Of a stretch of 64,000 bases of DNA, positions 8,704-44,140 are shown in pieces (position 1 is the first letter of the stretch; each line of letters starts with the position of its first letter). Below the pieces are notes generated by a model. That model did no database searches. It was not told the origin of the DNA and saw only the letters and a program-made list of their open reading frames with translations. Both the position numbers and the translations under genes were made by a program. The stretch comes from an uncultured virus (IMG/VR IMGVR_UViG_3300025916_000011) (lineage: Duplodnaviria; Heunggongvirae; Uroviricota; Caudoviricetes), in the IMG/VR virus record IMGVR_UViG_3300025916_000011; one strand, written 5' to 3'.

Positions 8704-8934
8704 ATGACCCACTGGCAAGAAGCCGGATTGGTGGTCGGCTCTGTGCTGCTATTTGCAGCTGGGTGCTACGTCTGGAACCGGATCCCCGTCCTGCAATGTC
8801 CCAACTGCGAAAAATATCTACTCGAAGAGGACATTGAACTCCAAGTGATGGGAACCAATGGCGAAGACCGGGAGTACGCGACGTGCCCAACCTGCGAATA
8901 CCAGTGGATGCTGGAGAAAGTTGCGGAGCGATGA
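8704..8934 (+). CDS. Small membrane-anchored zinc-ribbon protein
   Basis: TM segment then CPNC...CPTC; ATGA-coupled to the fibre gene. Confidence 0.65.
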   Translation: MTHWQEAGLVVGSVLLFAAGCYVWNRIPVLQCPNCEKYLLEEDIELQVMGTNGEDREYATCPTCEYQWMLEKVAER

Positions 8935-11900
8935 AGAAACTACTGGCAGTCGTTCTGTTCGCTTCTCTCCAAGCCTTCGCTACGGTCACAGTGAACGCGA
9001 CGTTCAATTCTCCGACCGGCCAGCCTGCCTCATTTGCCTACCTGACGTTGGACCTCGAGAACTGCGGCTACAACGTTCCCATCGTGCCAAGTTCTTCGAC
9101 GACGATGGTCCTGAAGCACATGCAGCTGCGGCCGAGTCAACTGCCAGCGACGATCTACGGGAACAACGAGATAACCTGCGGAAACTCGTACTCAACTCTA
9201 TGGCACGTGACAGCCTGGGCGGATTCGAATACGCCGATTGCCGGCGATTTGAATTATGACCTGTGCAGTTCTTCAACGAACTGCCTGGTGGCCTCCACGG
9301 GTGCATTCAATCTGGCGCAGAGCCAGCCATTCATGGGCACTCCTCCCCCGCCGGGATTCCGCAGCATCTTCGGCAATCCTACGCAGAGCCAGCTGGTGAA
9401 ACAGCCGAGCGGGACTTCGTTCTCGTTCGTCGGCACGTTGGATCTGACGCAGGCAACGGTTGTCGGACTGAGCGCGATCGGCATCAACGCCACGCAGATT
9501 GGGGGAATCAACGTCTGCACGACGGCGCCAACAAACAATCAGGTGTTGACGTTCGTGCAGGGAACGAATAGCTGGTGCCCGGGCGCCGCAGGACAGAATG
9601 CGAATGCTTCGCAGCTGCAGGGATTCAATGTCTCGAGCACGGCGCCGACAAGTGGACAGTTCCTTGGCTGGACTGGAAGCCTGTGGGCGCCTACGGCCAT
9701 TACGGGGTTCTTGCCCACGACGGGCGGGACGCTGACCGGCGCTCTGACACTCTCAGCGAATGCGGCCACGAATTTACAGCCAACGACTCTCCAGCAGGTG
9801 ACTGGGCTGCTTACTGCTAAAGCCGACCTGACTGGAGGGTTTGTTCCCCAAGCAGAACTGGGAACGGGTTCGCTTGGGACGGGAACCAAGTGCCTGCTCG
9901 ACAATCACAGCTTTGGAACCTGCGGATCAGGTTCTGGATCCGGCACGGTCTCAACGGGCACCCAGAACTTCCTCGCGCTGTACACCACGCCGGGGAGCGG
10001 AACCACGGTTGGACCAAGCAAGTTCTCGGATACTTCTACAGTCGGTGCTTACACCGGAACCCAGTTCCAGTTTCCTCAAGGCTCGAACGCATCGCCGGCG
10101 TTCTTCTTTCAGGGCACGAATATTGGGATGTACATTGGGGCGATTTCTGAGCAGTTCCAGGTCACGTCGACGTCTGCTTCGGGCGGGACAGCCACAATCG
10201 TCATTGCGAGCTCTGCCGGCTTCGCGATCAATCCGAAAGTCGGTGAGTACTTTGTAACCTCGGGCATCGGTGGCGGCTATGACTGCGCCATGCCAAACCC
10301 GTGCGTTATCACAGGGGTAAGTGGCGCGAATGTCAGCTACCTATCCTCTGGCACTGGCAGCTTCAGTTCGGGAACATTCAACTATGTCTACCCGACTCTG
10401 ACCCAGACAGCCTCGCGAAAGCTGGTGTTCAACAGCCTGCTCTCATCGACCAACAATGCGGCTCTGTCCTGCTCTCTCTGCTTGGCCGCGGGAGATACGG
10501 TTGCCTACCACGACACAACCCTAAACGCCGATGTCGTGGAATTGCAGGGCTGGACCGGAACCGGAACCAAGGGCCGCGTACAGATCGGGGACTTGCCTTC
10601 GAAGGTTCCGACCGCGGGCGCAATCGTCCCTGGCACCCTCGAGGTTCAAGGCAACGTAACATTCGACGGTTCTTGCACGGGATGCGGAGCGGGCGGCGCG
10701 GGCCTACAGAACCAGATGGCGTTCTATAGCGCGAACGGGAATACCTCAGTCGGCAACTCCAACACCACGGAGAACGGGACAACGTTCTCCTACTCGGGTA
10801 CAGGCGGCGGAAACTTCGCCAACGGAATCAGCGCCAACGGGACAGCCGGCATTCTGGCGAAGTTGGCATTCCCCGGCGCTCCCATGGCAGTCAGTCCGGT
10901 AGGCTATGTGGCCTACGGTGCCTCGAATGACGGGCACTCTTATGGTTCAGAGAACGGCGGCGCAATCTTCCAATGGCTGACCTCGGCCACCCTGACCCGC
11001 GGCCAGCGCGTATTCGGCACGGCCTTGGGAAATGGAGTGAATGTCACTGCTGGCTCAGAGTACGAATACACCTCGCTCTTGGCTGGTGCGACGGCTGACG
11101 CGCGTCTTCAGCAGTGCATCACGGATCTCGCGAGTTCTGGCGGAATCTGCGACATGACCGGGGAAGCCTCGGCTATCTCGCCAGCGGCCACAATTACCAT
11201 CACGACCAACAACATCACGATTTATTGGGTTTCTGGCACTTATACCGAAGGCAACAGCATCACGATCAACATCTCAGGCAATAACGACCAAGTTCTTTGC
11301 CTGCAGAAGTGGACTTGCACGATTGACGCCTCAAACAACGGGGCGGTGGGCGCGTTCAATATCAATGCCGGGCAGAATAACCTGCTCTCTGGTTTTAAGG
11401 TACTCGGCGGCCGCCTGACGAGCCAAGCAGGATTCGAAGTGAACATCTCCGGTTCACACAACGCCATGCAGGATATGTGGATTGTGAACGGCGGGGCATG
11501 GGGATCGCAGTTCGTCAACTGCTTCGAGTGCTCTGGAGTCCGCAACCGCATCGAGCAGGCGACTCGCGCGGGCATCGGGGTCACTGGCTCAGCTTTGGCA
11601 GTGTCGACGGCCACGCGAGTTGGGACACTCGCCACAATCACCACCACCGCGGCGCAAATCATCGGCGGAACCGGGACACGCACCTTCGTAGATATGCAGT
11701 CCTGTTCCTTGAGTCCGTACAACGGAGTCTTTCAGGCGACGGCGACCGGGGCAAATACCTTCACCTACACGATGGCCTCTGACCCGGGCGGATCGGCCAC
11801 GTCCTGCACCTATACCATCTACACCGAAGGCACTCTTATTGCGGACAATGTGCTGATCGACAACAACACGATCGACACAGGAGACGGTGGGCTAGCGATT

Positions 11901-13196
11901 CAATCAGCTTCGGGCATTGGAGTGGTCGAAGGCACAATCGTCAGAGGCAACACCGTCCGCTACAACTCCTACGGAACTGCTAGTTGCAACGGTGATACCA
12001 CGGGTGCGACTCCGCTAAGCGTGACCCTGGCGGGCAATGGCGCAACGATCACGGCGACAGTTGGCGCGGGCGTTACGGCTCCGAACCAAATGATGCTGAC
12101 CAGTCCGACGGCCAGCGTCGTGACCTTCAGCGGGATTACTGGCGGCGGCCTGGCGAACGCTACGCCGTTCACCGTGGCAAGTGTTGGCGCTACCACTTTC
12201 ACCATCACGAACGCCAACTGCAACCCGTCTTGCACCGGAACAATCACCTTCGTCATTAACGGCCATGGTAGCCTGGCGACAGGATGCTCGGAAGGCATTC
12301 AGCAGACAGATAAAGCCACAGACACGGAGATCGTCGGGAATACGGTCATCAACTCCTACCGCGAATCCTTCGCGACCTCGGGGACCGGCCTGAATATGCA
12401 CGCGAACCGCTGCATCAACCCTGCACTGCTCGGTGGTAGCGGGAACGGATGCTTCATGCTATCAGTCTCGAGCGGCGGTGGGCTGACGATCGCGGGCGAT
12501 GCGGTCATGGCGGATAACATCGCAATCAATGGTGGAACGAACTCGAACGCCTATGCATTCTCCGTCCAGGCGGGCACTGGATCCTCGAATACGACATTCC
12601 AGAACATTGACATCCACGACAACCAAATTGACGGCACAGTGACAGCCTTTGGAAATGGCGTGCGCTGGAATAACGCCTCGACCAACACCATGACGCTGAA
12701 AAATATCAGCGTTCACAACAATACCATGGTGGCAGCAACGACAGGCTTTGTCCTAAACAACAGCGTGGCCGGCACGACTACGATCTCAAACGTCGGCGTC
12801 CATGATAACCCAATGAGCGGGTTCACGACGGCCATCTCGATCCTGAACGGCGGCGGTGGCACACTAAACGGTGCGATCTACAGCCTGAATAACGGCACCA
12901 TGATCCAGGCCGTTCCTCTGACCGTAGCGCTTGGCACAACGACGGTGAACGCGAATACATGCAACACGGTATCAGGATCACCATTCACGGCGACAGGCGT
13001 CACGACTACCAGTCGGCTGAGTTGGAGCTTTGAAGCCACTCCCAACGGAGTGACAGGTTACACCCCAAGCGCAGCCACGTTGAATGTTGTGACTTATCCC
13101 ACAGCGAATGCGATCAACGTCCTTCTCTGCAACCCGACTGGTGGTGGCATTACCCCGGCGGCGATGAGCATTTCAGTAGATGCACGCAATCCGTAA
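8931..13196 (+). CDS. 1421-aa tail-fibre/spike-like protein with Sec signal peptide and right-handed beta-helix region
   Basis: MKKLLAVVLFASLQAFA|TV; fibre repeats (STAPTSGQFLGWTGSLWAP, FLPTTGGTLTGALTL); Asn-ladder beta-helix repeats (IADNVLIDNN, IVRGNTV, IHDNQI); ATGA start at 8931. Confidence 0.8.
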   Translation: MKKLLAVVLFASLQAFATVTVNATFNSPTGQPASFAYLTLDLENCGYNVPIVPSSSTTMVLKHMQLRPSQLPATIYGNNEITCGNSYSTLWHVTAWADSNTPIAGDLNYDLCSSSTNCLVASTGAFNLAQSQPFMGTPPPPGFRSIFGNPTQSQLVKQPSGTSFSFVGTLDLTQATVVGLSAIGINATQIGGINVCTTAPTNNQVLTFVQGTNSWCPGAAGQNANASQLQGFNVSSTAPTSGQFLGWTGSLWAPTAITGFLPTTGGTLTGALTLSANAATNLQPTTLQQVTGLLTAKADLTGGFVPQAELGTGSLGTGTKCLLDNHSFGTCGSGSGSGTVSTGTQNFLALYTTPGSGTTVGPSKFSDTSTVGAYTGTQFQFPQGSNASPAFFFQGTNIGMYIGAISEQFQVTSTSASGGTATIVIASSAGFAINPKVGEYFVTSGIGGGYDCAMPNPCVITGVSGANVSYLSSGTGSFSSGTFNYVYPTLTQTASRKLVFNSLLSSTNNAALSCSLCLAAGDTVAYHDTTLNADVVELQGWTGTGTKGRVQIGDLPSKVPTAGAIVPGTLEVQGNVTFDGSCTGCGAGGAGLQNQMAFYSANGNTSVGNSNTTENGTTFSYSGTGGGNFANGISANGTAGILAKLAFPGAPMAVSPVGYVAYGASNDGHSYGSENGGAIFQWLTSATLTRGQRVFGTALGNGVNVTAGSEYEYTSLLAGATADARLQQCITDLASSGGICDMTGEASAISPAATITITTNNITIYWVSGTYTEGNSITINISGNNDQVLCLQKWTCTIDASNNGAVGAFNINAGQNNLLSGFKVLGGRLTSQAGFEVNISGSHNAMQDMWIVNGGAWGSQFVNCFECSGVRNRIEQATRAGIGVTGSALAVSTATRVGTLATITTTAAQIIGGTGTRTFVDMQSCSLSPYNGVFQATATGANTFTYTMASDPGGSATSCTYTIYTEGTLIADNVLIDNNTIDTGDGGLAIQSASGIGVVEGTIVRGNTVRYNSYGTASCNGDTTGATPLSVTLAGNGATITATVGAGVTAPNQMMLTSPTASVVTFSGITGGGLANATPFTVASVGATTFTITNANCNPSCTGTITFVINGHGSLATGCSEGIQQTDKATDTEIVGNTVINSYRESFATSGTGLNMHANRCINPALLGGSGNGCFMLSVSSGGGLTIAGDAVMADNIAINGGTNSNAYAFSVQAGTGSSNTTFQNIDIHDNQIDGTVTAFGNGVRWNNASTNTMTLKNISVHNNTMVAATTGFVLNNSVAGTTTISNVGVHDNPMSGFTTAISILNGGGGTLNGAIYSLNNGTMIQAVPLTVALGTTTVNANTCNTVSGSPFTATGVTTTSRLSWSFEATPNGVTGYTPSAATLNVVTYPTANAINVLLCNPTGGGITPAAMSISVDARNP

Positions 13197-16100
13197 GTGA
13201 ATCGTTTCTCCCTCATCCTAGTGCTGGCCCTCTGTAGTTCGGCCTTGGCCGCGACCCAGCCTTGCGGCACAGGAACGACGCCCTGCCAGATGATCTCTAG
13301 CGCGTCGGACTTTCCGCTCGTCTCGACGCAGCCGAACTACGCACCAGCGAATAACTTTATTCTGCCCAACCCGACATTTACAGGGCCATCGCTGCTCATC
13401 AGTTGGGGTGACACGACCGGAACGGAAAACTCCGCGCTTCGATTAGACACTGGCACGACAGCACCATCATTTGACTTCACAGGCCTCGATTCCGCTCTCG
13501 CGGTGAACATTATCCCCAACAAGGGGCGCTTTAATCTAATCGTCCAGCCGGCATTTCTCGGAGTCGGTGGGACGATCAACAGCGCGACCCCGCTCTACAT
13601 CTACCGGCAGGATTACGCGGATTCCGTCTATCTCACCTATGCCGCCGGTTTGGTTGTCATCCCCGGCTGGTACATCTGCCTCAATGGAACCTGTCCGGGC
13701 ACGGGGCAATACTGGCAAGTCACATCGACCACAATTTCCGGGGTGAGTGCGACCTGCGCGCTGGCTGGAACCACAACCTTCCCCAGTTCTCCCATCGTCG
13801 GCCAAACTGTGACCGACTCTTGCGCGACCTTTGCCTACGTGGGTCCGCATGCTCCTCCCCAGGATACGGCTTTTTCGAGCACCTATAAGGGCCATGGATA
13901 TTCCTTGACGGTGGCGAGTGGATCTCAGTCGGGAACGACTGGCACGGTGACGGCCTCTGGCTTTGCGCCAACGTGGAAGTCTGGCGATCTGGTAACGGTA
14001 GCATTTGCAAGCGATCCCCGCCTGAACTGTACAAACTGTGCAGTGGTGGGGACGCCAACAGCAACCACCGTCAGTTACCAAATGGCAACCTCGGCCGTGA
14101 TTAACTCCGAGGTTTGTACCGGAGCCTGCACGATATCCGGGAAACACTCTGCCAATATCAATAGCGCGAACGCGACTCCTGCCCTGCTCGCGACAGGCCT
14201 TGCAGTCTGCTACGAATTGCCCTGCACCACAGCGATGAAGAATCTGATGCTACGGGTGCTAGAGCACTACTCCGCGAATTGTGCATCGGGCACTGAGCCT
14301 CCCTGCTCAGGCAACGCCGGAAACAATGGGCCTGCGCTCGGTAAATTCCTCGGCTACGTCCGCTTTGGTCTGCAGCATGGCGGCGAGAACGTTGTGGACG
14401 ATCCTTCGGTCTGGTCAACCTTCGCGCTGACATCGACCGCATTCAAGCCGATCTATTTGAGTTGGGTGAACTCGATGGATCAGTACGAGAACGTCACAAA
14501 CCTGGCGAACGCGAACGTCTGGTTGAATGGCAATCTCTATACCAACGTAAACCCCGCGACGAGCGCCCCAGATACGGACTTCCCCGACTTCGAAGCGACC
14601 TATGCCGTCCAGAACAACATAGGGATTGATCAGAACGGACTGAACAGCGCAGACATGACAGCCGGCGGCGTCCCGCCGAATTGTGCCGCTGGTCCCAATG
14701 TGAACGTCACGGGCGATCTGGTCTACAACTGGTGCAAATACATCGTTCCGACCGTGGCGGGGCAGTGTAAGTACAAAATGCCGAACGGCCAATGCGCATG
14801 GGGAACTTTGCAGACCCAGAGTTGCTCGACGCCCGGAATTGCGTCGGGGACTCAGGGCGGAACGAGTTGCTCCTCTGGTTCCTACTCGCCTATCCCCGGC
14901 TTCATCGGTCTAGCAGCCTGGGCTTCGTTGCTTCATAACACGAATCTCGAAGTCTACACGTCGGATCTTTTGCAAGGATTCGACCTGACTCCCACAGCGC
15001 TTCAGTGCCCGCAGTGCAGCACGCCGTTCCAGTTGCCCTATTTCGAGTCTTACGCGACCTTCCGCAACAGTCCAGAACTGATTCAGGCTGGCAATTGGGG
15101 CAGCGGGGCTACTGGGGGAGCGTTCACGATCGCCCCGGTGCCATTGGTCAATCTGCCGACAATCGGAGTTGCGAATCACGAATGTGACTCATCGTTTACT
15201 TATGAACTCTCTTTGCCGAATACGTGGGTCACGAGCGCGGCCCCAGGCTGGCCTGCGCATCTTCCCTATGCCCTGTCGCAAACCGGGATCCAGTTAGCCG
15301 TTAACGATATGGAAGCGTACCGGACGGCAAACAACGTCGGGATCAAACTCGACATTCCGCCCGGGGTTTACTCCGGCTCGGCGCCACTGACGCTTCCTCA
15401 GACAAGCACTACGGCATCCTCTTCGAGTCATTGCCTGATTCTCGCTTCCACGCAGGATTCCAACCTGCCAAACGGTCGCACAGTTTGCTCTCATGGCATT
15501 CAAGACAACCTCGCATCATCGACCGATCCAGGAGTTGAGAACTTCGACTGCACGGGCACGCAGATGACGTACCAGCTAGGAACGACTGTCACTCCGATTC
15601 CAGTGGGCACATTCACTCTGGCGAATGGGACGGTGACGAACACCTCGGCCTACAACGATGTGCAGTTCATGTGGACGTGGGAGATTACAGGCGTAAATAA
15701 GCCGGTAATCCAAGTGTGTTCGCCCATCGGCGTGAGTGGGACTTCCGTCCCTCCTCTTTGCGGAGCTACGGTGATCGGCCCTGATCATTGGCTAATTATG
15801 GACGCGGAAGGACGGCCACAGGCTGGACTAATTACCAATGCTGACATTTTCTCTGTCGGCCAAACTGGGACAGAAACAGCGACCACGCAATTCGCTTCGC
15901 ATATTCATTGGCGCAAGGATTGGGGGCATGGAGACTGGGCGCACACGGTCGCTGGGCTCTCTGTTGGGATCAATGCTATCGGCAGGGTGTTTTTCCTGAG
16001 TTGTTTTAATTGCTCAATCGTTGATAGCTACGCGAGCGAAGCGATTACGCCTGGGGCAGAAGGGCATATCGTCGGTTGCGGAATGGGGTCAATTTTCAAG

Positions 16101-17585
16101 ATTAACCACAACTGGTTCAGCGGAGAATCGCAGAGCGTTCTGTGTGGGGGAACTTCTACGCCAACGGTTGCCGGCTACGTCATGGGGAAAGACCTGGAGA
16201 TTCGCAGGAATCGGTTTAGTTTCCCCTACGCATGGCTCGGAGTGCTCAAGATCCCTGCGGGTAATCCGCACTGGGCCAATCAGAGCATCGGGCGTAAAAA
16301 CCTCTTCGAGATGAAGCAGGGCGAGCGGCAAGTAATCATGGGCAACATTCTCGAAAACGATGATAACTCTGGCGGGCAATCTGGGCCGGAAAGTGTGTTT
16401 ACAGTAAGAAATTTTGATGGTGCCAATTACCTCGCAACAATCACCGATTTATATGTGAACTCCAACATTTTCCGAAACACTTGCGAGGGACACCAGGTTG
16501 CTGGTAGGTCAGGAATCGGTGGGAACGGGTCAGGTGTGTCTCGCGGTATGCAGCGCGTCTGGTTCTTGAATAATCTCCATTACAACTATTCCGTGTCCAA
16601 CCCGGGCTGTACGGGTGTTAACAACACTGGTCAAAAAATCACTACCGCCGGTGAGCATTGGAATGGGACGATGACGAGAGATGCCACTGGAACGGTGGCG
16701 ACCTTCATTGCGACTTGCACTACGGATGTTGGCGGGAATTGTCCTCTCGGGCCGCCACCGCTTGGATTCCAGCAGACTCAGATTCAGATTGGTGACCATG
16801 TTGCGGTTACGGGATGCACTGTGGATTCCGGCTTCAACACTCCGGCTAACGGTAGCGGAGTAGTCTTGGGGGCAGCTGCGCTTTATGGAACGTTGCCATC
16901 TGGTCTTACTGTGGTGTTTCCGAACGCAGGAACCCCGAACTCTGTCGATTCTTCGGGAAACTGTCAGATAACGAACACTCAGGGTTACCCGAATAATCTA
17001 ATTTGGACGCATAACACTGCCGTAAGTGCAGTAACCGGCGGAGAGGTGCTCGGCAATCAGGTGAACCCTTCTGGGTATCCCTACAGTCTTTCTGGAGTCT
17101 TCCGCGACAGCATCTTCACCGGAATATCAGGATGGAACAACAACAACGGCGAAGGCACCGTCACCCAAGGGCAAGACTGGGATACCACCACGCTGACCGC
17201 CGACCATCTGGTTTGGGCAGGTCGTACAGCTTCGAAGTACACCGAGTACTCGAACAACACTTTAGTTCAGCAGTTGGGTTGCTTCTTTACTTCGGCAGAG
17301 CATTGCACTCCGCCACTCTCGATGTTTTTCCCGACGACGCCATACTGTACGGGTGCAACGTCGACTTCATCGTGTATTGGATTTGTGGGAGAGATGAGCG
17401 CGAGCAGTTTGAATCTTGCGTTGCCGGACTACCACGGCTACGCGCTGCGCTCAGACAGTTCTTTTATCAATAGCGCCTCAGACGGCACACAAATGGGCGC
17501 GAGCATTTCCGCGATCGACGCGGCCCAGACCCAGAAGCAGTTCGTATGTCCATGGGCATGCACGATGAATCCGCAACCGGACTGA
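13197..17585 (+). CDS. 1462-aa secreted putative depolymerase/adhesin (glycoside-hydrolase-like N-half, beta-helix C-half)
   Basis: MNRFSLILVLALCSSALA|; SW..E...FDFTGLD TIM-barrel-like start; KNLFEMKQGERQVIMGNILEN beta-helix; many cysteine pairs. Confidence 0.7.
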   Translation: MNRFSLILVLALCSSALAATQPCGTGTTPCQMISSASDFPLVSTQPNYAPANNFILPNPTFTGPSLLISWGDTTGTENSALRLDTGTTAPSFDFTGLDSALAVNIIPNKGRFNLIVQPAFLGVGGTINSATPLYIYRQDYADSVYLTYAAGLVVIPGWYICLNGTCPGTGQYWQVTSTTISGVSATCALAGTTTFPSSPIVGQTVTDSCATFAYVGPHAPPQDTAFSSTYKGHGYSLTVASGSQSGTTGTVTASGFAPTWKSGDLVTVAFASDPRLNCTNCAVVGTPTATTVSYQMATSAVINSEVCTGACTISGKHSANINSANATPALLATGLAVCYELPCTTAMKNLMLRVLEHYSANCASGTEPPCSGNAGNNGPALGKFLGYVRFGLQHGGENVVDDPSVWSTFALTSTAFKPIYLSWVNSMDQYENVTNLANANVWLNGNLYTNVNPATSAPDTDFPDFEATYAVQNNIGIDQNGLNSADMTAGGVPPNCAAGPNVNVTGDLVYNWCKYIVPTVAGQCKYKMPNGQCAWGTLQTQSCSTPGIASGTQGGTSCSSGSYSPIPGFIGLAAWASLLHNTNLEVYTSDLLQGFDLTPTALQCPQCSTPFQLPYFESYATFRNSPELIQAGNWGSGATGGAFTIAPVPLVNLPTIGVANHECDSSFTYELSLPNTWVTSAAPGWPAHLPYALSQTGIQLAVNDMEAYRTANNVGIKLDIPPGVYSGSAPLTLPQTSTTASSSSHCLILASTQDSNLPNGRTVCSHGIQDNLASSTDPGVENFDCTGTQMTYQLGTTVTPIPVGTFTLANGTVTNTSAYNDVQFMWTWEITGVNKPVIQVCSPIGVSGTSVPPLCGATVIGPDHWLIMDAEGRPQAGLITNADIFSVGQTGTETATTQFASHIHWRKDWGHGDWAHTVAGLSVGINAIGRVFFLSCFNCSIVDSYASEAITPGAEGHIVGCGMGSIFKINHNWFSGESQSVLCGGTSTPTVAGYVMGKDLEIRRNRFSFPYAWLGVLKIPAGNPHWANQSIGRKNLFEMKQGERQVIMGNILENDDNSGGQSGPESVFTVRNFDGANYLATITDLYVNSNIFRNTCEGHQVAGRSGIGGNGSGVSRGMQRVWFLNNLHYNYSVSNPGCTGVNNTGQKITTAGEHWNGTMTRDATGTVATFIATCTTDVGGNCPLGPPPLGFQQTQIQIGDHVAVTGCTVDSGFNTPANGSGVVLGAAALYGTLPSGLTVVFPNAGTPNSVDSSGNCQITNTQGYPNNLIWTHNTAVSAVTGGEVLGNQVNPSGYPYSLSGVFRDSIFTGISGWNNNNGEGTVTQGQDWDTTTLTADHLVWAGRTASKYTEYSNNTLVQQLGCFFTSAEHCTPPLSMFFPTTPYCTGATSTSSCIGFVGEMSASSLNLALPDYHGYALRSDSSFINSASDGTQMGASISAIDAAQTQKQFVCPWACTMNPQPD

Positions 17586-17596
17586 GGAGAGTGAAT

Positions 17597-17845
17597 ATGT
17601 GGAATAAATTTTGGCTTTGGCTCGGAGAGAAGTACGAGACTAACCCGGTATTTCACGGGGCAGTCGCCGCGGCGGAAGGCGGCGCTGTCGCGGGCCTCGG
17701 AACCTGGATCACTGCGGGGGCCCCTCTGACAAAGCAGGGGCTGGCGGCTGCCCTAGCTGGTGTCGGTGGTGGAGCGGGAATCGCACTGCGCAACTACTTC
17801 AAGAATCGGCTGACTCAGCCGGCGACGGGAGCACCCAAAGCCTAA
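17597..17845 (+). CDS. Small membrane protein, holin candidate
   Basis: GAGGAG SD; Gly/Ala-rich hydrophobic segments, basic tail; upstream of the candidate endolysin. Confidence 0.55.
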   Translation: MWNKFWLWLGEKYETNPVFHGAVAAAEGGAVAGLGTWITAGAPLTKQGLAAALAGVGGGAGIALRNYFKNRLTQPATGAPKA

Positions 17846-18094
17846 ATGAACGAGACGGGATTCACTCTGCTAGAGCATCACTTAACCTTCGGCGCGATTA
17901 TGACCATGTGGGCCAGCATGGTCGGCGCTGGAGTCTGGATCCTTAACAAGCACAAAGTCTGGCTCAACATCAAGAACCGTTTGAACGATCTTTGGTGGGA
18001 CCGTTGCGCGATCCGACAAGAGCGGTACACGCCTCTTGAGAATGGCGCACCGGCAGTAATACCTCCGCGACCTTCGCACCATCACGGCGACTAG
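17846..18094 (+). CDS. Single-TM protein, holin/antiholin candidate
   Basis: TM LTFGAIMTMWASMVGAGVWIL; TAAATG coupling. Confidence 0.55.
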   Translation: MNETGFTLLEHHLTFGAIMTMWASMVGAGVWILNKHKVWLNIKNRLNDLWWDRCAIRQERYTPLENGAPAVIPPRPSHHHGD

Positions 18095-18463: not shown

Positions 18464-18687
18464 GCCACGGTCTGACTCCACGCGAGGTTGAATCGCTGGA
18501 ATTGGCTGCTGACGGGCATCGCTCACTGGATATTGCACGGATGTGGGGATACACAAAAGCGAAGCATGGAAACGACACTGGTCCGAGCCATGTACGAAGA
18601 GTCTGGAAAAATGCTGAGGAAAAATTGGGCGCCGACACGATCACGCAAGCAGTGGCGATGGCTCTGAGGCGCGGACTGATTCAATGA
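18460..18687 (+). CDS. Stand-alone LuxR/GerE HTH regulator
   Basis: GLTPREVESLELAADGHRSLDIA...KLGADTITQAVAMALRRGLI; GTGA overlap. Confidence 0.85.
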   Translation: MSHGLTPREVESLELAADGHRSLDIARMWGYTKAKHGNDTGPSHVRRVWKNAEEKLGADTITQAVAMALRRGLIQ

Positions 18688-19259: not shown

Positions 19260-19263
19260 ATCT

Positions 19264-20091: not shown

Positions 20092-20092
20092 C

Positions 20093-20814: not shown

Positions 20815-20846
20815 CTTTCCCGAACTCTCAACAGGAGAACTCACCA

Positions 20847-37178: not shown

Positions 37179-37925
37179 TTGGGCGTACAACTCATCATCA
37201 CCCGTGTTCAGGTCATCGCGAAAGACATGGGCGCGAAGTGGCTCACGCCTGACGCCATCTGCGCGAATCTAGCGATCTGCAACGATGACCTGGAGATGGA
37301 ATTACAGAACCTCGGGCTAAACTTCGACACCGTAGAAGTGATTCTCCCGAACATTCCAGCCAACACCACCAACCTGAATAGCTTTCAGGCTGATGGGCAA
37401 GTTCTGTTCCCCATGGTGCTCTGCAAAACGATCGAGTGGAGATTAGCGGGACGGACGCAAGAGGACTGGGAGCAAGTTGAGCAGGTGGACAAGGTTGTAG
37501 ATACCGACACCGGAACAGGGGAAACGGGAGCGACCGTCGCTTCTGCCGATCCTACGGTGGAGAGTTGGGAGTGGAGAGGCGGAAACGTCTACCTCAGCCC
37601 ATGTCAACTGTCGGTTGACTTGCGCGTTCGCTTCCAAGGATTGCCGACGTTCCTGAATGCCGACTCACCGAATCAGCCTTTCCGTGGATTGGTAAATATC
37701 TTGGCCTATTGGGTGGCGCAGTTCATGGAAGAAAGCCGCAACGCGGGAGTGACGAAGCTCTCGCAACTGTTTGAAAAGCGGCTGATCAAGGCCAAGGCAA
37801 ACTTCCGCTCCTCGCAAGTGCAGAACCTTCAAGGCATGGCGAATCGGCTGGGCGGACGTCGCAGTTCGATACCCGGAGGCTTTCCGGGCGGAAGCGGAAA
37901 TTTCACCCCTCCAATCGTGAATTAA
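37179..37925 (+). CDS. Head-to-tail adaptor (P22 gp4/tail tubular A-like)
   Basis: Size, position, VYLSP..VDLRVRF...ILAYWVA pattern. Confidence 0.65.
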   Translation: MGVQLIITRVQVIAKDMGAKWLTPDAICANLAICNDDLEMELQNLGLNFDTVEVILPNIPANTTNLNSFQADGQVLFPMVLCKTIEWRLAGRTQEDWEQVEQVDKVVDTDTGTGETGATVASADPTVESWEWRGGNVYLSPCQLSVDLRVRFQGLPTFLNADSPNQPFRGLVNILAYWVAQFMEESRNAGVTKLSQLFEKRLIKAKANFRSSQVQNLQGMANRLGGRRSSIPGGFPGGSGNFTPPIVN

Positions 37926-37957
37926 CCAATTTTTGCAGTCCCAAGGAGAACCCAACT

Positions 37958-38380
37958 ATGGCAAACGTGCTTACCTTCATCGGTCGGAAGTTGAATATGC
38001 CGACCACGGTTACCAAACGCTTTTCCTGCTTACTGAGCGGAAACTACGCCCAGGGACTAGCCATTGGCGTACCGGGCGAGACGCTTAGTTTCAACACAGC
38101 GAAAAACCCAAACTTTGCAGCCCGCACGAAACTTCCATCGAGTCCTGGCGGAGTATTGCCGGCGACCACCGACTTTGAAGTCGTGACTTGTCCGAATGGG
38201 TATTCGGCCCAAGTCGAGAAAAATGCGGTTGCTCCCACGCCGAACAACTACGTCCTGCGCATCTTTGCGGCTGGTTCGGGCAACGCTGCCCCCGTCGAAC
38301 TCGGGGCGGGTGCCTACCCCGCTGCCCTAACCGGCGCTCCCATCGTCATCGAAGTCTCGATGCCGGCGAAGTACAACTAA
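37958..38380 (+). CDS. Small virion protein (decoration-like)
   Basis: AAGGAG SD; VELGAGAYPAALT motif. Confidence 0.65.
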   Translation: MANVLTFIGRKLNMPTTVTKRFSCLLSGNYAQGLAIGVPGETLSFNTAKNPNFAARTKLPSSPGGVLPATTDFEVVTCPNGYSAQVEKNAVAPTPNNYVLRIFAAGSGNAAPVELGAGAYPAALTGAPIVIEVSMPAKYN

Positions 38381-38393
38381 GGGAGTATAGGCC

Positions 38394-41300
38394 ATTCCCT
38401 GGGACTGCAAGTTCAACCACAAGGTTGAACGATGGGGCGGGGGCGTAGATTGGGACGATGCGACCGTCATTCCGAATGGAGTGGCGGTTGTTTGCAAAAA
38501 CACTCGGTTCCGCGCTGAGACTCCAGCCACACGCTTTGGGCGAAAACACACCATGGTAGCCGACGGAATCGCGGCGGTTACTGGTGTCGACTGCCTCAAT
38601 GTCTTGGTCAACAACCCCCAACAGGTTCCCATCGCCTTTACGGATGCCGGCGAACTCTTGCGCGAATCCCCGCCAGGCGGCGGCGACCTGATCCCCTTGA
38701 CTCCTCCAATCCCCTTACCCTTGGGCGCGTACATGGCCGACGCCTTAGCTGACAATCGCATGTACATCGCGATCAGCGATCTGGTGAAGGGATTAATCCC
38801 ACCATTGGTGGTTGATGGGCCGAGCGGAGCACTTTCCGTTGCCGGCCAGAATCCCATCGGCGCTCTCTGGCAATCAGGAGTGTGGTATCAGGTTGGGGAT
38901 CTGGTGCGCTCAACCGATGGGCGATGGTGGCGCTGTACCGACGCTGCTACCGCGATCTCGACAAGCACCGCTCCATCGTGGCCGCAGTTTAATGGATATT
39001 TCCTTCCGGCACTGAATTTTCAACCTGCGGTAGTCGCTGAGAACATCAGCGGAACCCAGTGGCAGGAGTGGACGCCAGCCGTACAGCAGTATCTTCCAGC
39101 CCCGGACGTTTCAGGGATGGTCGTAACGCAGATCGCAGGGATTGGGCTGATCCCTGCCGGCAAGGATGTTTACATCAAAGTGACCTACGTTGCAACGACG
39201 GCGAGTGGAGTCGGGGAATCGCCGCGGTCGCTGGTCATGGTGTTGGTAAACAGTTCCGCCAACGCGAGAATCTTCATTCAGCAAGTGGGATCGGTGGACG
39301 GCAGCAACAACATGCCGCAATGGTTGGCGAACCTGTTTCTGAATGAGGACAACGTTTTCAACGGTCAGATCACTGCAAATATCTACGTTGCGGCCGTCAA
39401 TCATGGTGCTGCAGCACCGGCGGATTCGTCCTATTTCTTCTATCAGAACATCGCGATGCCGAGTTCCTTCGTCATCAGTTCCATTCCCAACTCAACCCAG
39501 GCCACGGCACAGGGCGCACCTGTAGTCATCAGCCCATATATTTCCACGGACCCAGGGGGAGCACTAGGTTCCTTCATCGGAGAAGGCGGAACGCGCTACT
39601 TCATCGTGCTCCGGCAGAACCTGAACGGGTCATTTTCTCCAGTGGATACAGGAAGTCCCATTCCGATCAGTCTCGTTGGGCAAGTCGAAGTCGACATCGT
39701 GAATATCGAACGGGACGGATCGGGAAACGTCACGGCTACGGTCGGAGATATCACAGGCTTTGCTGTAGGGCAGGGAGTTCAGGTACAAGGCTGCACGAAA
39801 GATGCGACTTTCAACTCTGGGATATCGCCATTTATTTTGAACAAGGTTTACCAGACTCTCGCTCCGGGCGGGGTTTTGAAATGGCTGGACACGAATCATC
39901 TGAGCCAATCGAACGATGACACAGGAGCGGTGATCCTTCCCGCCGGACCTCCTCCAGTTGCTTTCCTTCCCCCGGGCGGGCCGAATGACATGCAGGATTG
40001 CGTAGCGTTCACAGTAGCTGCGCCACAGACCGGTCAGCCTGTGAATCTTCCGGCGGGCCCCTTCAATATCATCCCGGCATCCAACCCGAAACTTCCGTTT
40101 GCGGCGACCATTTTGAGCATGCAGGGTCCGCAAACGCTGCAGTTCTCCGGCGTAGCTCTCACGCGCGATGCGGGCGGGGATGTGCAGGCGACACTTGCGG
40201 ACATAGCCGGAATCCAGCCGGGCGCCACTGTTACGGTCCTCAATGCGGGTGATGCGAGTTTTGACGGGGATTTTACGCTTCTCGGCGTCACGCCAACCAC
40301 TGGGACTGGTGGGACTTTGACCTGGCAGCAGGCAGACACCGCTGCAACCTCGACGACTGCGACTCTGACGATCGGGATACAAGTTCTGGGAGAAGTGCAG
40401 GCAGTTGTTGATAACGCCTCGGGATTTGCCGCTGGAGACGTTGTGACGATCCGCAACGCCTCACCCGCAGCATTCAACGGGACGGTAACCATCGCGAGCG
40501 TGCTTGGCAATGTCGTCACGTTTCCCTCGGCGGCGACTGGCACGGCATCGCAGGCGGGGCTCCTGACCATGCAGATGTTCTTGCTGCAAGTCCTCCCCAC
40601 GGTCGCGGCTGCGAATGAAGCAAATATCATCTCCATCCAGAGGGATGCGCGCGGCAACGTCTCCGCCGTAATCCCTTCAATTTACGGATGGTCTGAAGGA
40701 CAGGTCGCGGTTGTAGCGAACGTAGGCGATCCATCCTTTGACGGAAACTTCGAAGTCGTATCGGCGGTAGTCAACAACGATCTCATCACCGCGACAATCT
40801 CATGGGTACAGTACGGAACTCCAGCGCTTCCGCCGGCGGCATCGTCTTCGGGTGGAACGCTTGGCAGCATCCCGATTTTCACCTGCAACTTTGATGACAA
40901 CGCGCTCTCTGCCGAGGATGTGACCTCTCAACTCACGGCCATGGCACCACCGAATTCGACAGACGTGTTTTTCTCCGAGACCTTGAATCGCATGGTCTAC
41001 ACCAAAGGGAACGACACGGCCCACTACTTCTCGAACATTGGAGACAATGAGAATATCGACCAGGCAGGCGGGATTTTACCTGTCGCGGAAAACAATGGAG
41101 CCGTGACAGTCTGCTTCCGCGAGATGGAAAGCGGGGAATTGCTCTCCCTAAAAGCCAATGGCGGATATGCGATCGAGCAAAACGACAATACCCCAAGTGG
41201 TTGGGAAGTGGTGCGGCGGTGGAAGAATCATGGGCCAGTAAACGCCAAGGCTGTCGCGCTCGGGCCAGACTTCCTAATCGTCTTCGTCGAGTACAGCGGG

Positions 41301-42371
41301 CCTTATCGCTATGACGGGCACCAGTTTGAGTGGATTGGACGAGAGAAACAGGGCACTTGGGACCGGGTGAACTGGGCCGCAAAGAATACGATCTGGTGTG
41401 AAGTAGACGACGACAAGAAAACGGTCCACTTCGGCCTTCCCCTCGATGGTTCCCCGACGCCAAATAAAGACGTGAAGTGCAACTACTTCAACGGGTGGCA
41501 GGATCCGCTGATCGTGAACATGATGGGGCAGGTGATTCCGAACCGCTACGGGCGGCGATGGTCCGAGGATGACCTCGCGGCCACTTGCGGAAAGCTTGTA
41601 CTTCGCACCTTAAATCCATCAGTCGACAACCGAATCAATGACCGCCAGATGCTGTTCGGCCTAAGTCGCGCAGTTCTCCCAGGAGAGACTGGCTACGGTG
41701 AAGGACCATACGGCGCCGACGGGTATGGTGGTCTTGGGACGGGAGTCATCACTCCAACGCAAGCCTTCGTCGACATGGAAGTGCCCGATACCTATTCTGA
41801 CGATGGGCCGGTGGGCGACGTCTCCACCACATCAGAGAATCCGGTATTCGGCAACGGCAACAGCCAGACCCTGCAAGTCGCGGACCTGACGAATATCTCA
41901 GTGGGAACGAAACTGCTGATTGATCCGGGCGTCAATGAGGAAAAATTCACAGTAACGAGCATCACGAATGGGCTACTCGCTGCCGTCTTCACAAAATCCC
42001 ACGATCCAGGGTCAGTAGTCCTTTCCGCAGACTACAGCCAGATCGGGATTGATTGGCAATATCAGCCGGCATTCGCCCAGTCGCCCACGTTTGAAATCTT
42101 CCGCTGGTCTAAGATCAAAGGCCGCTATCTCGGAAGCGGGCTGATCAACTTCGAGCCAGTCACAGAAGACCCGAATTTCGAAGTTGATCCACTGGTCTCA
42201 AATTCCCAAGTCGGCATCCCGACCAAGTTCGCTTTCGGCGTAAACGTCGAAGGGGACAATGAAATGCTCTCATTCAACATTAACAACGGAGCAGAGCCGG
42301 GAGTCTGGGGCGAGTTGCATGGATTGGTAATTGGCGGCAACGAAGTGGCGGCTTCGCAGGAGACTCAATGA
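38394..42371 (+). CDS. Tail hub/head-closure protein (P22 gp10/tail tubular B-like) with inserted beta-barrel repeats; probable ATT start
   Basis: N-terminal WGGG...D...IPNG....KNTRFR; YFSNIGD, GPVNAKAV, GPYRYDG propeller motifs; AAGGGAG SD 8 nt before ATT at 38394. Confidence 0.75.
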   Translation: MPWDCKFNHKVERWGGGVDWDDATVIPNGVAVVCKNTRFRAETPATRFGRKHTMVADGIAAVTGVDCLNVLVNNPQQVPIAFTDAGELLRESPPGGGDLIPLTPPIPLPLGAYMADALADNRMYIAISDLVKGLIPPLVVDGPSGALSVAGQNPIGALWQSGVWYQVGDLVRSTDGRWWRCTDAATAISTSTAPSWPQFNGYFLPALNFQPAVVAENISGTQWQEWTPAVQQYLPAPDVSGMVVTQIAGIGLIPAGKDVYIKVTYVATTASGVGESPRSLVMVLVNSSANARIFIQQVGSVDGSNNMPQWLANLFLNEDNVFNGQITANIYVAAVNHGAAAPADSSYFFYQNIAMPSSFVISSIPNSTQATAQGAPVVISPYISTDPGGALGSFIGEGGTRYFIVLRQNLNGSFSPVDTGSPIPISLVGQVEVDIVNIERDGSGNVTATVGDITGFAVGQGVQVQGCTKDATFNSGISPFILNKVYQTLAPGGVLKWLDTNHLSQSNDDTGAVILPAGPPPVAFLPPGGPNDMQDCVAFTVAAPQTGQPVNLPAGPFNIIPASNPKLPFAATILSMQGPQTLQFSGVALTRDAGGDVQATLADIAGIQPGATVTVLNAGDASFDGDFTLLGVTPTTGTGGTLTWQQADTAATSTTATLTIGIQVLGEVQAVVDNASGFAAGDVVTIRNASPAAFNGTVTIASVLGNVVTFPSAATGTASQAGLLTMQMFLLQVLPTVAAANEANIISIQRDARGNVSAVIPSIYGWSEGQVAVVANVGDPSFDGNFEVVSAVVNNDLITATISWVQYGTPALPPAASSSGGTLGSIPIFTCNFDDNALSAEDVTSQLTAMAPPNSTDVFFSETLNRMVYTKGNDTAHYFSNIGDNENIDQAGGILPVAENNGAVTVCFREMESGELLSLKANGGYAIEQNDNTPSGWEVVRRWKNHGPVNAKAVALGPDFLIVFVEYSGPYRYDGHQFEWIGREKQGTWDRVNWAAKNTIWCEVDDDKKTVHFGLPLDGSPTPNKDVKCNYFNGWQDPLIVNMMGQVIPNRYGRRWSEDDLAATCGKLVLRTLNPSVDNRINDRQMLFGLSRAVLPGETGYGEGPYGADGYGGLGTGVITPTQAFVDMEVPDTYSDDGPVGDVSTTSENPVFGNGNSQTLQVADLTNISVGTKLLIDPGVNEEKFTVTSITNGLLAAVFTKSHDPGSVVLSADYSQIGIDWQYQPAFAQSPTFEIFRWSKIKGRYLGSGLINFEPVTEDPNFEVDPLVSNSQVGIPTKFAFGVNVEGDNEMLSFNINNGAEPGVWGELHGLVIGGNEVAASQETQ

Positions 42372-44140
42372 GAAATTATTTCCTTCTGGCAGTTCTCGGG
42401 CTGCTATCCGTAGTGGCGCAGGGACAGACAACGTGCAATCCAAATCTGCTGCCGACCTTTACACCGAACCTGAATATGGCGCTCCCACAACTGACCGGAT
42501 GCAACTGGGGCACGTCCATCAACAGCGACTTTCTTCAGATTGATGGCCTTCTAGGGGGCACGTCCCAGATTGCGGCGATGAGCGCTTCTTCGATCACAGG
42601 CACGAAGATTACCGGATGCACGCTGAATTCCGCCAGATACGTAGGGGACATTTGCGCTTCGACCTGGGGCAACGGGGACATCGGCGCGCAACTTAATACA
42701 GCATATGCCTCACTTCCATCCACGGGCGGATTCCTTGGAGAGCTGTGCTCAACCGGAGGAACGAACTATACCTATACGACGCCAATGGTCGGGGCTACGG
42801 TGGGGAAGTACTTCTTCGCGCCCGCACAGGCGACGACCGACCAAAGCAATAACGGCTGCGGGCTGGTCTACACCCCGACGACAGCGACGAATGCACTACG
42901 CATCGACTTCGGTCCCAGTACTGGTGGAGGGTACACCCCGACCGGCGGGTTAGACAAAATCGTACTTTCCAATAACGGCTGTGTGACGAATGGAGGTTGC
43001 GGGAGTTCCGCGACGGGGATCATGTTCGGCCCGACGAACGGCGGCGGCGGAGAGATGTTCAAGATCGGCAGCAGCAAAATCGACGGCTTTGGTGTAGGCA
43101 TAAACTTCAACGATGCGAACGCCGCCGGATGGGGTACTCAAATCGAAAATTTCAGCGCAGTCCACAATACGACCGGGCTGCTATTCAGTAGTTACCACGA
43201 GAACATGCACCAGTTCGGCGGGGCGCTCGCCGTCAATAGCGTCGGAGTGGATTGCGGCACAAGCGGAACGGACTTCTCTCAGTTTGGGGTATCTAATGAT
43301 TCTCAAACGGTGGGAGGAATTCAAGGGAACTGCATCTACAGCGGGTTTGGTTCTCACTGGGAGAACCTGGGCAGTTCCACCATGGACTTCCTGCACAATT
43401 TCGGCAACTCGGCCGAGATTGCCGGCGGGTTCGCGCTAAACGATACCAACTCGGGTTCCCCAGCCACGGATATGTTCGACCTGAACGGCGCGTTGGTGAG
43501 CGTGCATGGGCTGACCGTCTACTCAGGAAGCCAGACGATCACCAATCTTTTCCAGAATCGGAACGGCGGGGTAGTCGTCGGAGACTTCAAAACCCAATCA
43601 CCCAATGCCATCACGAATCTTTGTTTCGAGATGTCCCAATGCTACATAATCCGCGAAGTTGTGAGCAGCACCCCAAATGCTTTTGGAGCGCTGACGTGGA
43701 CTGGAGACCAATGGACGTTCCAGCCAACTGCGGCGAGCGCGCTCGGCCCAATCAGATTTAACGACAGTTCCGGGACTACCCGATGGGCGTTAGGGAACAA
43801 GGATTGCAGCGGCAGTCCTTCGAATGATTTCGTGCTTTGCAGCACGGCGAACAACGGCTTTGGTCAGGCTCAGGCGCTTCGCGTTTCTGCCACGACTGGA
43901 GCCGTGAGCGGAAAGAATATCGTCATCGCGACCTCGTTCACCACGACGGCGGCGACCACAGATAACGTGACGGTGACCGGGATGACGGCCAGCGGGCACT
44001 GCATGCTGCAACCCACAAATTCGGCAGCGGCGGCTGGTATCGCCTCAGTTTTCGTTTCCAATAAGACCACAAACCAAATTACGGTGACGCATACCTCGAG
44101 CGCCAACTGGAATTTCGACGTGATGTGCACGCCTAATTAA
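42368..44140 (+). CDS. Tail fibre/spike with Sec signal peptide
   Basis: MRNYFLLAVLGLLSVVAQG|Q then TPNLNMALP...WGTSINSDFLQID fibre-anchor motif; beta-helix body; 16 cysteines; ATGA-coupled to the tail hub. Confidence 0.8.
   Translation: MRNYFLLAVLGLLSVVAQGQTTCNPNLLPTFTPNLNMALPQLTGCNWGTSINSDFLQIDGLLGGTSQIAAMSASSITGTKITGCTLNSARYVGDICASTWGNGDIGAQLNTAYASLPSTGGFLGELCSTGGTNYTYTTPMVGATVGKYFFAPAQATTDQSNNGCGLVYTPTTATNALRIDFGPSTGGGYTPTGGLDKIVLSNNGCVTNGGCGSSATGIMFGPTNGGGGEMFKIGSSKIDGFGVGINFNDANAAGWGTQIENFSAVHNTTGLLFSSYHENMHQFGGALAVNSVGVDCGTSGTDFSQFGVSNDSQTVGGIQGNCIYSGFGSHWENLGSSTMDFLHNFGNSAEIAGGFALNDTNSGSPATDMFDLNGALVSVHGLTVYSGSQTITNLFQNRNGGVVVGDFKTQSPNAITNLCFEMSQCYIIREVVSSTPNAFGALTWTGDQWTFQPTAASALGPIRFNDSSGTTRWALGNKDCSGSPSNDFVLCSTANNGFGQAQALRVSATTGAVSGKNIVIATSFTTTAATTDNVTVTGMTASGHCMLQPTNSAAAAGIASVFVSNKTTNQITVTHTSSANWNFDVMCTPN

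Follow-up and report, generated by a model that had tools for sequence, protein, structure and literature searches.

Sec-type leaders on fibre and spike candidates of an uncultured tailed phage suggest a periplasmic step in virion assembly

The established view is that tailed phages assemble their particles entirely in the cytoplasm. The late region of IMGVR_UViG_3300025916_000011, an uncultured virus known here from its genes alone, raises the question of why seven proteins encoded among head, tail and lysis genes start with what look like Sec signal peptides. The whole stretch of 64,000 nt that was analysed is referred to as the window. The phage likely has a host in the Acidobacteriota, is temperate as judged from a gene for a tyrosine integrase, and is probably short-tailed (Table 1).

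Table 1 Features of the window discussed in the text. Genes are named by their start positions.
Feature	Position	Strand	Description
8931	8931..13196	+	Leader (17 aa), F1 module (mature 1-115, then extended arm), long fibre/probable beta-helix body, 30 Cys
13197	13197..17585	+	Leader, 1444-aa Cys-rich protein, no anchor module found
Probable lysis cassette	17546..20091	+	Two small ORFs, putatively holin-like; 18095, 18684, 19264, 19888
20847	20847..22508	+	Leader (24 aa), F2 module (small beta-barrel and helices), Ig/FN3-like domain, TNF-like jelly roll
22955	22955..23341	+	Conserved cytoplasmic 128-aa protein, often directly upstream of F3 gene
23341	23341..25149	+	Leader (18 aa), F3 module (about 50 aa), fibre
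25146	25146..25922	+	Leader, 242-aa protein, 3 Cys
25919	25919..27871	+	Leader, probable beta-helix glycan enzyme
Portal, scaffold and major capsid candidates	28527..34290	+	From position, size and synteny; no family match
Head-tail adaptor candidate 37179, 140-aa protein 37958, tail hub/nozzle candidate	37179..42371	+	Putative; none with leader
42368	42368..44140	+	Leader (19 aa), F4 motif (aa 29-66, fibre-N-terminal type), probable beta-helix, C-terminal domain
Ejection-type proteins 45044, 46199, 50430; small and large terminase	45044..58892	+	Ejection-type proteins putative, Cys-free
Tyrosine integrase	60102..61304	-	Marks the phage as temperate

Seven late proteins with Sec-type leaders

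All seven leader-bearing ORFs that an earlier note had listed for this DNA are present at their noted starts and together comprise 16,629 nt (about 16.6 kb in the note). In every one, a basic n-region is followed by an uncharged hydrophobic h-region and by a cleavage site with small residues at -3 and -1, according to a heuristic rule of our own, for which the rate of false calls on internal windows of these proteins was 0 to 0.004. Applied to 34 late-region ORFs, the rule called ten: the seven, the lipoprotein-type 19264 and 19888, and 20323. The seven are therefore predicted substrates of Sec and signal peptidase I. Six of the genes abut or overlap the gene upstream, as the note had described for most of them; the exception, 20847, is separated from its upstream gene by 32 nt and has its own RBS. 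The start codon of 13197 is GTG.

Thr, Ser, Gly and Asn together account for a fraction of 0.36–0.47 across the seven proteins, and neither a membrane anchor nor an autotransporter barrel was seen, there being no Pfam match and no hydrophobic 19-residue window above threshold beyond the N-terminus. Scans of the seven against Pfam, PHROG and NCBIfam gave no match, including to PF08400 or a PHROG fibre family and, in Pfam, to S74 or pectate-lyase-like domains, and their N-terminal fragments matched no PHROG tail family. The mature Cys counts are 30, 44, 8, 12, 3, 20 and 16 in gene order, even in six of the seven. The contrast with Cys-poor virion proteins drawn in the note was confirmed for the capsid candidate (one Cys) and the ejection-type proteins (none) and was nevertheless selective, since the portal candidate and the hub have 11 Cys each and 36199 has 10.

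It is very improbable that the leaders are not used for export, with translation starting further downstream or the leader left uncut to tether the protein to the inner membrane during assembly there. The leader calls are heuristic only and in-frame GTG or ATG codons lie near the cleavage site in 8931, 13197, 20847 and 42368, as this explanation would need; against this, the start codons are linked to the stops of the genes before them, leaders and Cys pairing go together, and the tripartite form is kept across more than 130 sequence-variable homologues. Two of the genes, 23341 and 25146, also lack a nearby alternative start, with no in-frame ATG, GTG or TTG within 45 codons past the cleavage site, and in 25919 the first one past the cleavage site is at codon 51.

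Export would also suit the distribution of leaders in the lineage. A survey of related phages, proposed in the note as a check, found them clade-wide, each of five related virus records (G002–G006) encoding several leader-bearing late proteins of low charge that contain Cys; the long late-strand ORFs of like composition that lack a leader were the hub, the protein after the hub and a few short structural ORFs. When IMG/VR was searched for the capsid, a single sequence retrieved nothing and an alignment query retrieved relatives, and tblastn of the capsid, 42368, F1 and F2 against 50,697 phage records gave no match.

An artefact of gene composition forced by Acidobacteria as hosts was considered and rejected: the fibres of the cultured phage Tunturi_3 share the Thr/Ser/Gly/Asn bias but lack leaders and are poor in Cys, and none of the 18 late proteins checked from this phage has a leader.

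Conserved modules behind the leaders

In four of the seven proteins a conserved module directly follows the leader: F1 in 8931, F2 in 20847, F3 in 23341 and F4 in 42368. These N-terminal modules are the most conserved part and the tips are exchanged, a pattern which by analogy is that of virion-anchored receptor-binding proteins. A leader precedes F1 in 7/7 loci and in 71 of 73 whole-module representatives, and F3 in seven of eight loci, the remaining one being cut by the contig end, whereas none of 20 homologues of 22955, which served as internal control, has one; the leader is thus tied to the modules and conserved as a property. The Cys count is even in 59 of 71 F1 proteins (p 1.3e-8).

The F1 model (pLDDT 85.6) was compared to 48,161 chains of solved structures, and the top four matches, each aligned from residue 1-2, were chains of phage necks or tail tips: 8keg_a (Z 7.5, rmsd 3.6, 100 aa), 9d93_La (Z 7.3), 9e7m_Ta (Z 6.9) and 7kjk_A3 (Z 6.3), with the next row at 5.2; a Z of 6.3-7.5 is middling and within the range that the tool calls common. 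Two of the four were checked as fibre anchors, namely lambda StfN (9e7m_Ta, PF08400), which forms a collar holding the side fibres on the tail (PMC12617516, available text), and A-1(L) gp82N (residues 1-125, the length of 8keg_a), which joins the neck fibre to gp5 (PMC10966104, available text). The F1 module of 8931 is accordingly modelled as a beta-sandwich resembling a fibre collar or neck anchor, and 8931 was the only one of the seven for which an anchor fold of the Stf-N/gp82N type was found. The N-terminal domain of lambda gpStf (9E7M chain Ta) and gp82N of cyanophage A-1(L) (8KEG chain a) share with it a beta-sandwich of like topology that begins with the first residue of the mature chain and precedes a long, variable fibre. 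Both start at Met1 and are cytoplasmic, whereas 8931 has a cleavable leader upstream, a Cys-rich chain and no family match at the sequence level. Its probable beta-helix body was read from the sequence pattern and a relative; two F1 relatives (P0056, P0087) have S74 or pectate-lyase-like domain matches below the curated cut-off. F1 matches occurred in 6 of 401 genomes. Tunturi_3 gp15 was tried as a signal-less F1 protein and rejected (hhalign probability 1.7%).

The gene for 20847 belongs to the core of the lineage, and eight signal-less F2 orthologues were found, all in phage records just downstream of a terminase gene. Each has its own RBS and begins where the leader-bearing proteins are predicted to be cleaved, and their F2 modules contain 0-1 Cys, compared to 2-4 in all 61 leader-bearing ones, so that loss of the leader is coupled to loss of Cys. 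Their rows are nested among leader-bearing rows (4 changes, at least 2 forced). Homologues beginning after the leader had been named in the note as evidence against export; those found here, in other phages and without the Cys pair, instead favour it. Loss of a leader would be fatal for a cell-surface protein and tolerable for a virion part that can be made in either compartment, and the persistence of signal-less orthologues thus favours a virion part. In relatives, F2 genes directly follow the capsid or adaptor gene, in some prophages the capsid gene. The structural matches of the F2 barrel do not single out one type and include tail-tip, tailspike, capsid and EF-Tu barrels (Z 6-9; EF-Tu-type up to 7.4). 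Capsid decoration proteins of the beta-tulip type are small beta-barrels that bind the capsid shell. Foldseek gave no match at E<=0.001 for the F1 or F2 model, solved structures searched with F1, F2 and F4 profiles gave nothing meaningful, and an Atlas search with a signal-less F2 protein gave nothing.

Both the F2 orthologues and the gene positions bear on a different explanation, in which the proteins are MAT-like or lysogenic-conversion fibres that never become part of the virion; held on the host envelope by their N-terminal modules, they would serve as adhesins, shield receptors or modify the capsule. The phage does have an integrase, and F2 modules are also found at the N-termini of secreted proteins encoded in chromosomes, next to glycosyltransferases and with no phage marker in the vicinity. 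The layout, moreover, equals that of the Bdellovibrio MAT fibres, with a signal peptide, a conserved N-terminal beta-rich domain, a phage-like variable tip and in some cases S74 (PMC10769870, available text). The likeness is of layout only: the MAT fibres are chromosomal and displayed on the cell surface, whereas the window proteins are encoded in virion operons and have signal-less phage orthologues. We regard surface fibres as distinctly unlikely, given also that the genes are co-oriented and mostly stop/start-coupled inside the head, tail and lysis modules, that no membrane anchor was seen and that the F1 fold is best matched by virion collars. Promoters, which are a weak test, point the same way, as no separate promoter was found above chance (2 sites, both on the minus strand, versus 8 expected) and no plus-strand promoter-like site in 7800-27700.

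For F3, one relative has a C-terminal Peptidase_S74 domain (E 1e-4, above cut-off) and a PHROG tail fibre match (E 2.8e-10), and another has a tailspike family match; the F3-sharing relatives with S74 or pectate-lyase/tailspike domains are L014 and L036. The F4 motif, a match of 38 residues only, is preceded by a leader in gp337 and gp341 of Tunturi_5, both annotated as tail fibres, and begins at Met1, with no leader, in Tunturi_4 gp112 (hhalign 91%). A homologue search with the F4 region returned only 42368 itself, and the viral leads of an Atlas search with 42368 were all sub-threshold. The C-terminal domain of 42368 shares 79% identity with the tip of an F1 protein.

Attachment to the virion, which the note had proposed for the whole set, is thus indirectly supported for 8931, 42368, 20847 and 23341, by an anchor-like fold or motif, signal-less orthologues, S74/tailspike domains in relatives and gene position. 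This support does not extend to 13197, 25146 and 25919, on which no anchor module was detected. The hub candidate, the start codon of which is probably ATT at 38394, is a cytoplasmic protein with beta-rich inserts of its own and could bind receptors unaided by the leader-bearing proteins.

Leader-bearing proteins without a detected anchor

The C-terminal part of 13197 is common to leader-bearing proteins of G002 and G003, and the gene lies directly upstream of the probable lysis cassette, in which 18095 is a Tlde1-domain protein and the lipoproteins 19264 and 19888 may be spanin-like. No relative of 25146 was found. The product of 25919 shares 31-39% identity over about 540 aa with host proteins in polysaccharide-synthesis loci; these homologues are full-length and their loci have no phage marker nearby, which identifies 25919, as far as such comparisons go, as a captured host exopolysaccharide-locus protein. 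A phmmer search with 25919 against solved structures gave nothing meaningful. The earlier suggestion that host-type secreted carbohydrate domains are reused for receptor binding is borne out by 25919 as regards the host origin, but a soluble enzyme fits this protein equally well.

Alternatively, all seven might be soluble helpers or aids to escape that accumulate in the periplasm until lysis frees them to cut exopolysaccharide or to condition neighbouring cells, with the anchor-like N-termini as relics. The origin of 25919, the position of 13197 and the three anchor-less proteins would suit such a role. It is nonetheless unlikely for the set as a whole: a relic would decay, whereas the N-terminal modules are the most conserved part and it is the tips that are exchanged, and the phages would be left without a recognisable fibre.

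Two-compartment assembly and known systems

We consider it probable that these phages combine Sec export, periplasmic disulfide folding and docking on particles at lysis, along with some soluble glycan enzymes. Sec export and disulfide formation, as put forward in the note, are strongly supported by the sequences, export in the cell itself being inferred. The cytoplasm would retain the capsid, portal, adaptor, hub and ejection proteins, whose late operon also encodes the fibre and spike proteins. The latter would be exported by Sec, cleaved by signal peptidase I and oxidized in the periplasm, presumably by Dsb enzymes, and they may also trimerise. Once lysis brings the two compartments together, or shortly afterwards, the freed N-terminal modules (the collar-like F1, F4, F2 and probably F3) could attach to completed particles. 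The anchor-less 25919, and probably 13197 and 25146, would take the same route and act as soluble glycan-cutting helpers or be attached to the anchored fibres. We also lean towards a wider claim, that this is a widespread route of tailed phages in which all parts for receptor binding and decoration are secreted as a disulfide-bonded set, mature in the periplasm and dock at lysis via collar and barrel modules; the set would draw in exopolysaccharide-locus domains, and a gene could be returned to the cytoplasm by the joint loss of leader and Cys.

As regards the export and late joining itself, periplasm-matured fibres that join at lysis would be a route that, to our knowledge, has no description for tailed phages; a literature search on exported tailed-phage virion parts, judged mostly from listings and with thin coverage of subscription papers and supplements, found no description. 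If true, assembly would involve a second compartment, infectivity would depend on host Sec and Dsb functions, and recombinant fibres of these phages would need periplasmic expression. Host-range evolution would be open to a large pool of secreted disulfide-bonded glycan-binding domains, of which 25919 looks like a capture, and pipelines that read a signal peptide as a sign of a non-virion protein would miss the receptor-binding proteins of many soil phages.

Among tailed phages, seven leader-bearing proteins of the Cellulophaga phages phi18:3 (gp085-087) and phi10:1 (gp091-094) are annotated as structural from MS/MS, although detection in lysate particles could reflect co-purification. Like the window proteins they are late-operon products with typical Sec leaders; unlike them, they have 0-3 Cys and Bacteroidota hosts, and they are homologous neither to F1 or F2 nor to any of the window proteins. 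The records of these phages leave the leaders unmentioned. Closer in host are Tunturi_4 and Tunturi_5, a cultured sipho- and jumbo myovirus of Acidobacteriota (PMC11924767), the available main text of which mentions neither "signal peptide" nor "mass spectrometry". Both phages have leader-bearing, Cys-rich fibre genes, and the F4 motif is shared with Tunturi_5, but no F1, F2 or F3 match was found among 18 proteins tested. The hosts of Tunturi_3, Tunturi_4 and Tunturi_5 belong to one genus. With leader-bearing fibres in Tunturi_4 and Tunturi_5 and leaderless ones in Tunturi_3, the question is directly testable in cultured phages. Passage of virion proteins through Sec is familiar from pIII and pVIII of filamentous phages, and pIII gains disulfides in the periplasm; both are membrane-anchored and join the particle during non-lytic extrusion. 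The window proteins differ in being apparently soluble and in belonging to a phage with a terminase, a portal candidate and a probable lysis cassette.

Late genes and leader-bearing proteins

The window phage is temperate and tailed. Its candidate virion genes were assigned by position, size and synteny, as the portal, scaffold, capsid, adaptor, hub and ejection-type proteins had no match in the family libraries searched. Capsid relatives numbered 45 (45-100% identity); one, frameshifted, lies within an Acidobacteriaceae MAG and more distant prophages occur in genomes of the same order, making Acidobacteriota the most likely host. The decayed prophage in this Acidobacteriaceae MAG (L006, G007:C24:74893-81594) has both capsid and portal genes frameshifted. 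Hub relatives at two loci (L014 and L023) start with TTG, and the hub family may use weak start codons. The terminase large-subunit ORF apparently lacks its first 70-90 residues, unless a non-standard start lies upstream. Relatives carry ORFs similar to the HNH-like insertion, also after the capsid gene.

Features of the window outside the seven leader-bearing genes
Feature	Position	Strand	Remark
Integrase	60102-61304	minus	
Terminase subunits	56798 and 57522		genes (56597-58892) downstream of ejection genes, far from portal
Portal candidate	28527		
Scaffold candidate			
Capsid candidate	33010		
Adaptor candidate	37179		
Hub candidate	38394		apparent ATT start (38394-38396), good RBS upstream
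Ejection-type proteins			large, Cys-free
Probable lysis cassette	17546-20091		Tlde1-domain enzyme found; putative holin and spanin
Tlde1-domain protein	18095-18463		stand-alone, lysis region; candidate unusual endolysin; also in related record G005
Eighth leader-like ORF	20323-20814		hydrophobic C-terminal part, immediately upstream of 20847; possibly a membrane protein
HNH-like insertion (by eye)	34330-35052	minus	after capsid gene
HNH-like insertion (by eye)	45675-46196	plus	among ejection genes
Small LuxR-type HTH-like ORFs (by eye)	6877-7122, 18388-18687, 20093-20326		two within late region

Our own signal-peptide heuristic, applied to 34 late ORFs, gave ten positives (rate on internal windows ≤0.004): two lipoproteins, 20323, and all seven proteins to which the earlier note had ascribed Sec leaders, each with its leader at the start given there (named by ORF start: 8931, 13197, 20847, 23341, 25146, 25919 and 42368). 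Six of the seven genes are stop/start-coupled, in line with the coupling to late genes claimed for most of them, and no internal membrane segment was found in any, agreeing with the supposed lack of an anchor. The mature proteins contain 30, 44, 8, 12, 3, 20 and 16 cysteines, respectively; the cysteine contrast drawn in the earlier note held for the capsid and ejection proteins and failed for the portal and hub, with 11 cysteines each.

Conservation and host counterparts of the modules, and absence of the leader

Leader-bearing late-region proteins of like composition were found in all five related records (G002-G006) and in four longer metagenome loci, and the predicted leader is a trait of the clade; its form is kept across relatives while its sequence varies. 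Comparison of these loci revealed modules beginning exactly at the predicted cleavage point in 8931 (F1), 20847 (F2), 23341 (F3) and 42368 (F4), and none in 13197, 25146 or 25919. The F1 leader was present at 7/7 loci. An F1 profile search returned 656 representatives (E≤0.001), which are sequences without genomic context; among the best 150, 40 lacked the module start, and the other 110 comprised 94 with a leader and 16, mostly short fragments, without, the leader being present in 71 of the 73 that hold the whole module. Cysteine counts were even in 59 of the 71 F1 proteins beginning with Met (p 1.3e-8, kinship ignored). For F3, 7/8 rows had the leader and the remaining row was cut. The conserved cytoplasmic 128-aa control 22955 gave 0/20 leader calls; those in two further controls (37958, 2/14; 44140, 1/16) look like upstream mis-starts. 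That the leaders go unused appears very improbable.

The position of F2 genes is between terminase and portal, or else immediately behind the gene for the capsid or for the adaptor. With same-phage loci and loci from two unpublished genomes excluded beforehand, 74 distinct F2 rows comprised 61 with a leader, one borderline, eight signal-less, two internal copies, one adaptor insert and one cut by a contig end. All eight signal-less orthologues, two of which are near-identical, come from phage records and sit immediately downstream of the terminase gene, with the portal next in all seven records where the contig extends that far, and have their own RBS and an in-frame stop upstream. Their modules hold 0-1 cysteines, versus 2-4 in all 61 leader-bearing ones. 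In a quick tree, with no root inferred, the seven distinct signal-less rows were nested among leader-bearing rows, with four leader changes, two forced by starred branches; leader and disulfide pair therefore go together, across only two to four independent events. One prophage (L122, G010:C8:147000-167000) has three leader-bearing F2 genes dispersed over its head and tail modules. Two adaptor homologues (L012:9251-10225 and L013:14188-15453) contain an insert with weak similarity to the profile of the F2 barrel (E 7e-7 and 1e-3), and the one in L012 also matches a hub segment; the barrel may be mobile among virion proteins.

F2 also matched 29/401 genomes, three of which are marked unpublished and enter into none of the other claims. 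Many matches are prophages, and those at L123, L126 and L127 are secreted chromosomal proteins adjoining glycosyltransferases, which favors a non-virion reading. For 25919, matches were found in 9/301 genomes from the host order. The four homologue contexts examined, with identities of 31-39% across some 540 aa, were all polysaccharide-synthesis clusters free of phage markers. This protein is as likely a soluble depolymerase, and it lends some weight to the reading, unlikely overall, that the exported proteins are only soluble helpers. Large, Cys-rich secreted proteins that lack any Pfam match are encoded at Acidobacteriota polysaccharide-synthesis loci (L123, L126, L127, L154-L157), and some of them begin with the phage F2 module; they may form an unnamed host family exchanging with phages.

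Structural and sequence similarities to fibres

The four best structural matches of the F1 model (67 sequences, pLDDT 85.6) were phage neck or tail-tip chains, aligned from their first residues: A-1(L) 8keg_a (Z 7.5, rmsd 3.6, 100 aligned), Bxb1 9d93_La (Z 7.3), Ur-lambda 9e7m_Ta (Z 6.9) and XM1 7kjk_A3 (Z 6.3), with the next row at 5.2. Such Z values are only of middling size, and a Foldseek search with the model had no significant match. The Ur-lambda chain was checked to be the Stf N-terminus (PF08400), of which a collar of twelve copies holds the side fibres (PMC12617516); A-1(L) gp82N is described as attaching the neck fibre to gp5 (PMC10966104). The 20847 model (pLDDT 86.9) combines a small barrel with an Ig-like domain and a TNF-like jelly roll. 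Among the structures that it matches best are the Chi tail tip, a K1 lyase, the SPO1 capsid, PRD1 P5 and the fibre tips of cyanophages, with EF-Tu-type barrels in the same range (Z 6-9), and the predicted fold is only suggestive of a virion link.

The F4 motif matched two annotated fibres of the cultured Acidobacteriota phage Tunturi_5 (gp337 and gp341), likewise behind a leader, and Tunturi_4 gp112, where it begins at Met1 (hhalign, 91% over 38 columns). A Peptidase_S74 chaperone or a tailspike-like domain is found in relatives of F3. Modules exchange their tips: over its final 53 residues, 42368 shares 79% identity with the tip of an F1 protein. Among 18 proteins checked from Tunturi_3, a podovirus of the same host genus, fibres of like composition had no leaders and few cysteines; the leader trait is thus optional, and a host artefact was ruled out.

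Proposed assembly and known systems

Late transcription would be followed by Sec export and SPase I cleavage of the leader-bearing proteins, which would be oxidized, and probably trimerized, in the periplasm. Lysis by the cassette at 17546-20091 would then mix the compartments, allowing the modules to dock onto neck, tail or capsid. Late joining of fibres to finished particles is possible, as in P22. We consider this route as a whole, with periplasm-matured proteins docking on particles at lysis, reasonably probable. That the proteins instead form fibres of the cell surface is distinctly unlikely, though the mosaic adhesive trimer (MAT) fibres of Bdellovibrio, which share their layout, are located on the cell (PMC10769870). 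Together with the host homologues of 25919 and the chromosomal F2 proteins, these fibres mean that export alone is no proof of virion attachment.

In the literature searched (most subscription journals lay outside coverage), no description of exported virion parts in tailed phages was found, and the main text of the Tunturi paper contains neither 'signal peptide' nor 'mass spectrometry' (PMC11924767). Leaders are present in Cellulophaga phage proteins annotated 'structural protein, MS/MS' (phi18:3 gp085-087 and phi10:1 gp091-094) and in the pectate lyase gp095, and absent from the other 15 late proteins translated, gp120 having a hydrophobic start not of leader type; these structural proteins have no sequence relationship to the window system. 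The proteins would work like collar-anchored fibres, but their site of maturation would differ and the sequence test for such fibres failed, and the system was therefore not placed in any named family: it would be a new form of fibre biogenesis. The window adds a match to an anchor fold immediately following a leader, the disappearance of leader and cysteines together, one domain with a host source, and cultured phages in which virion attachment can be tested.
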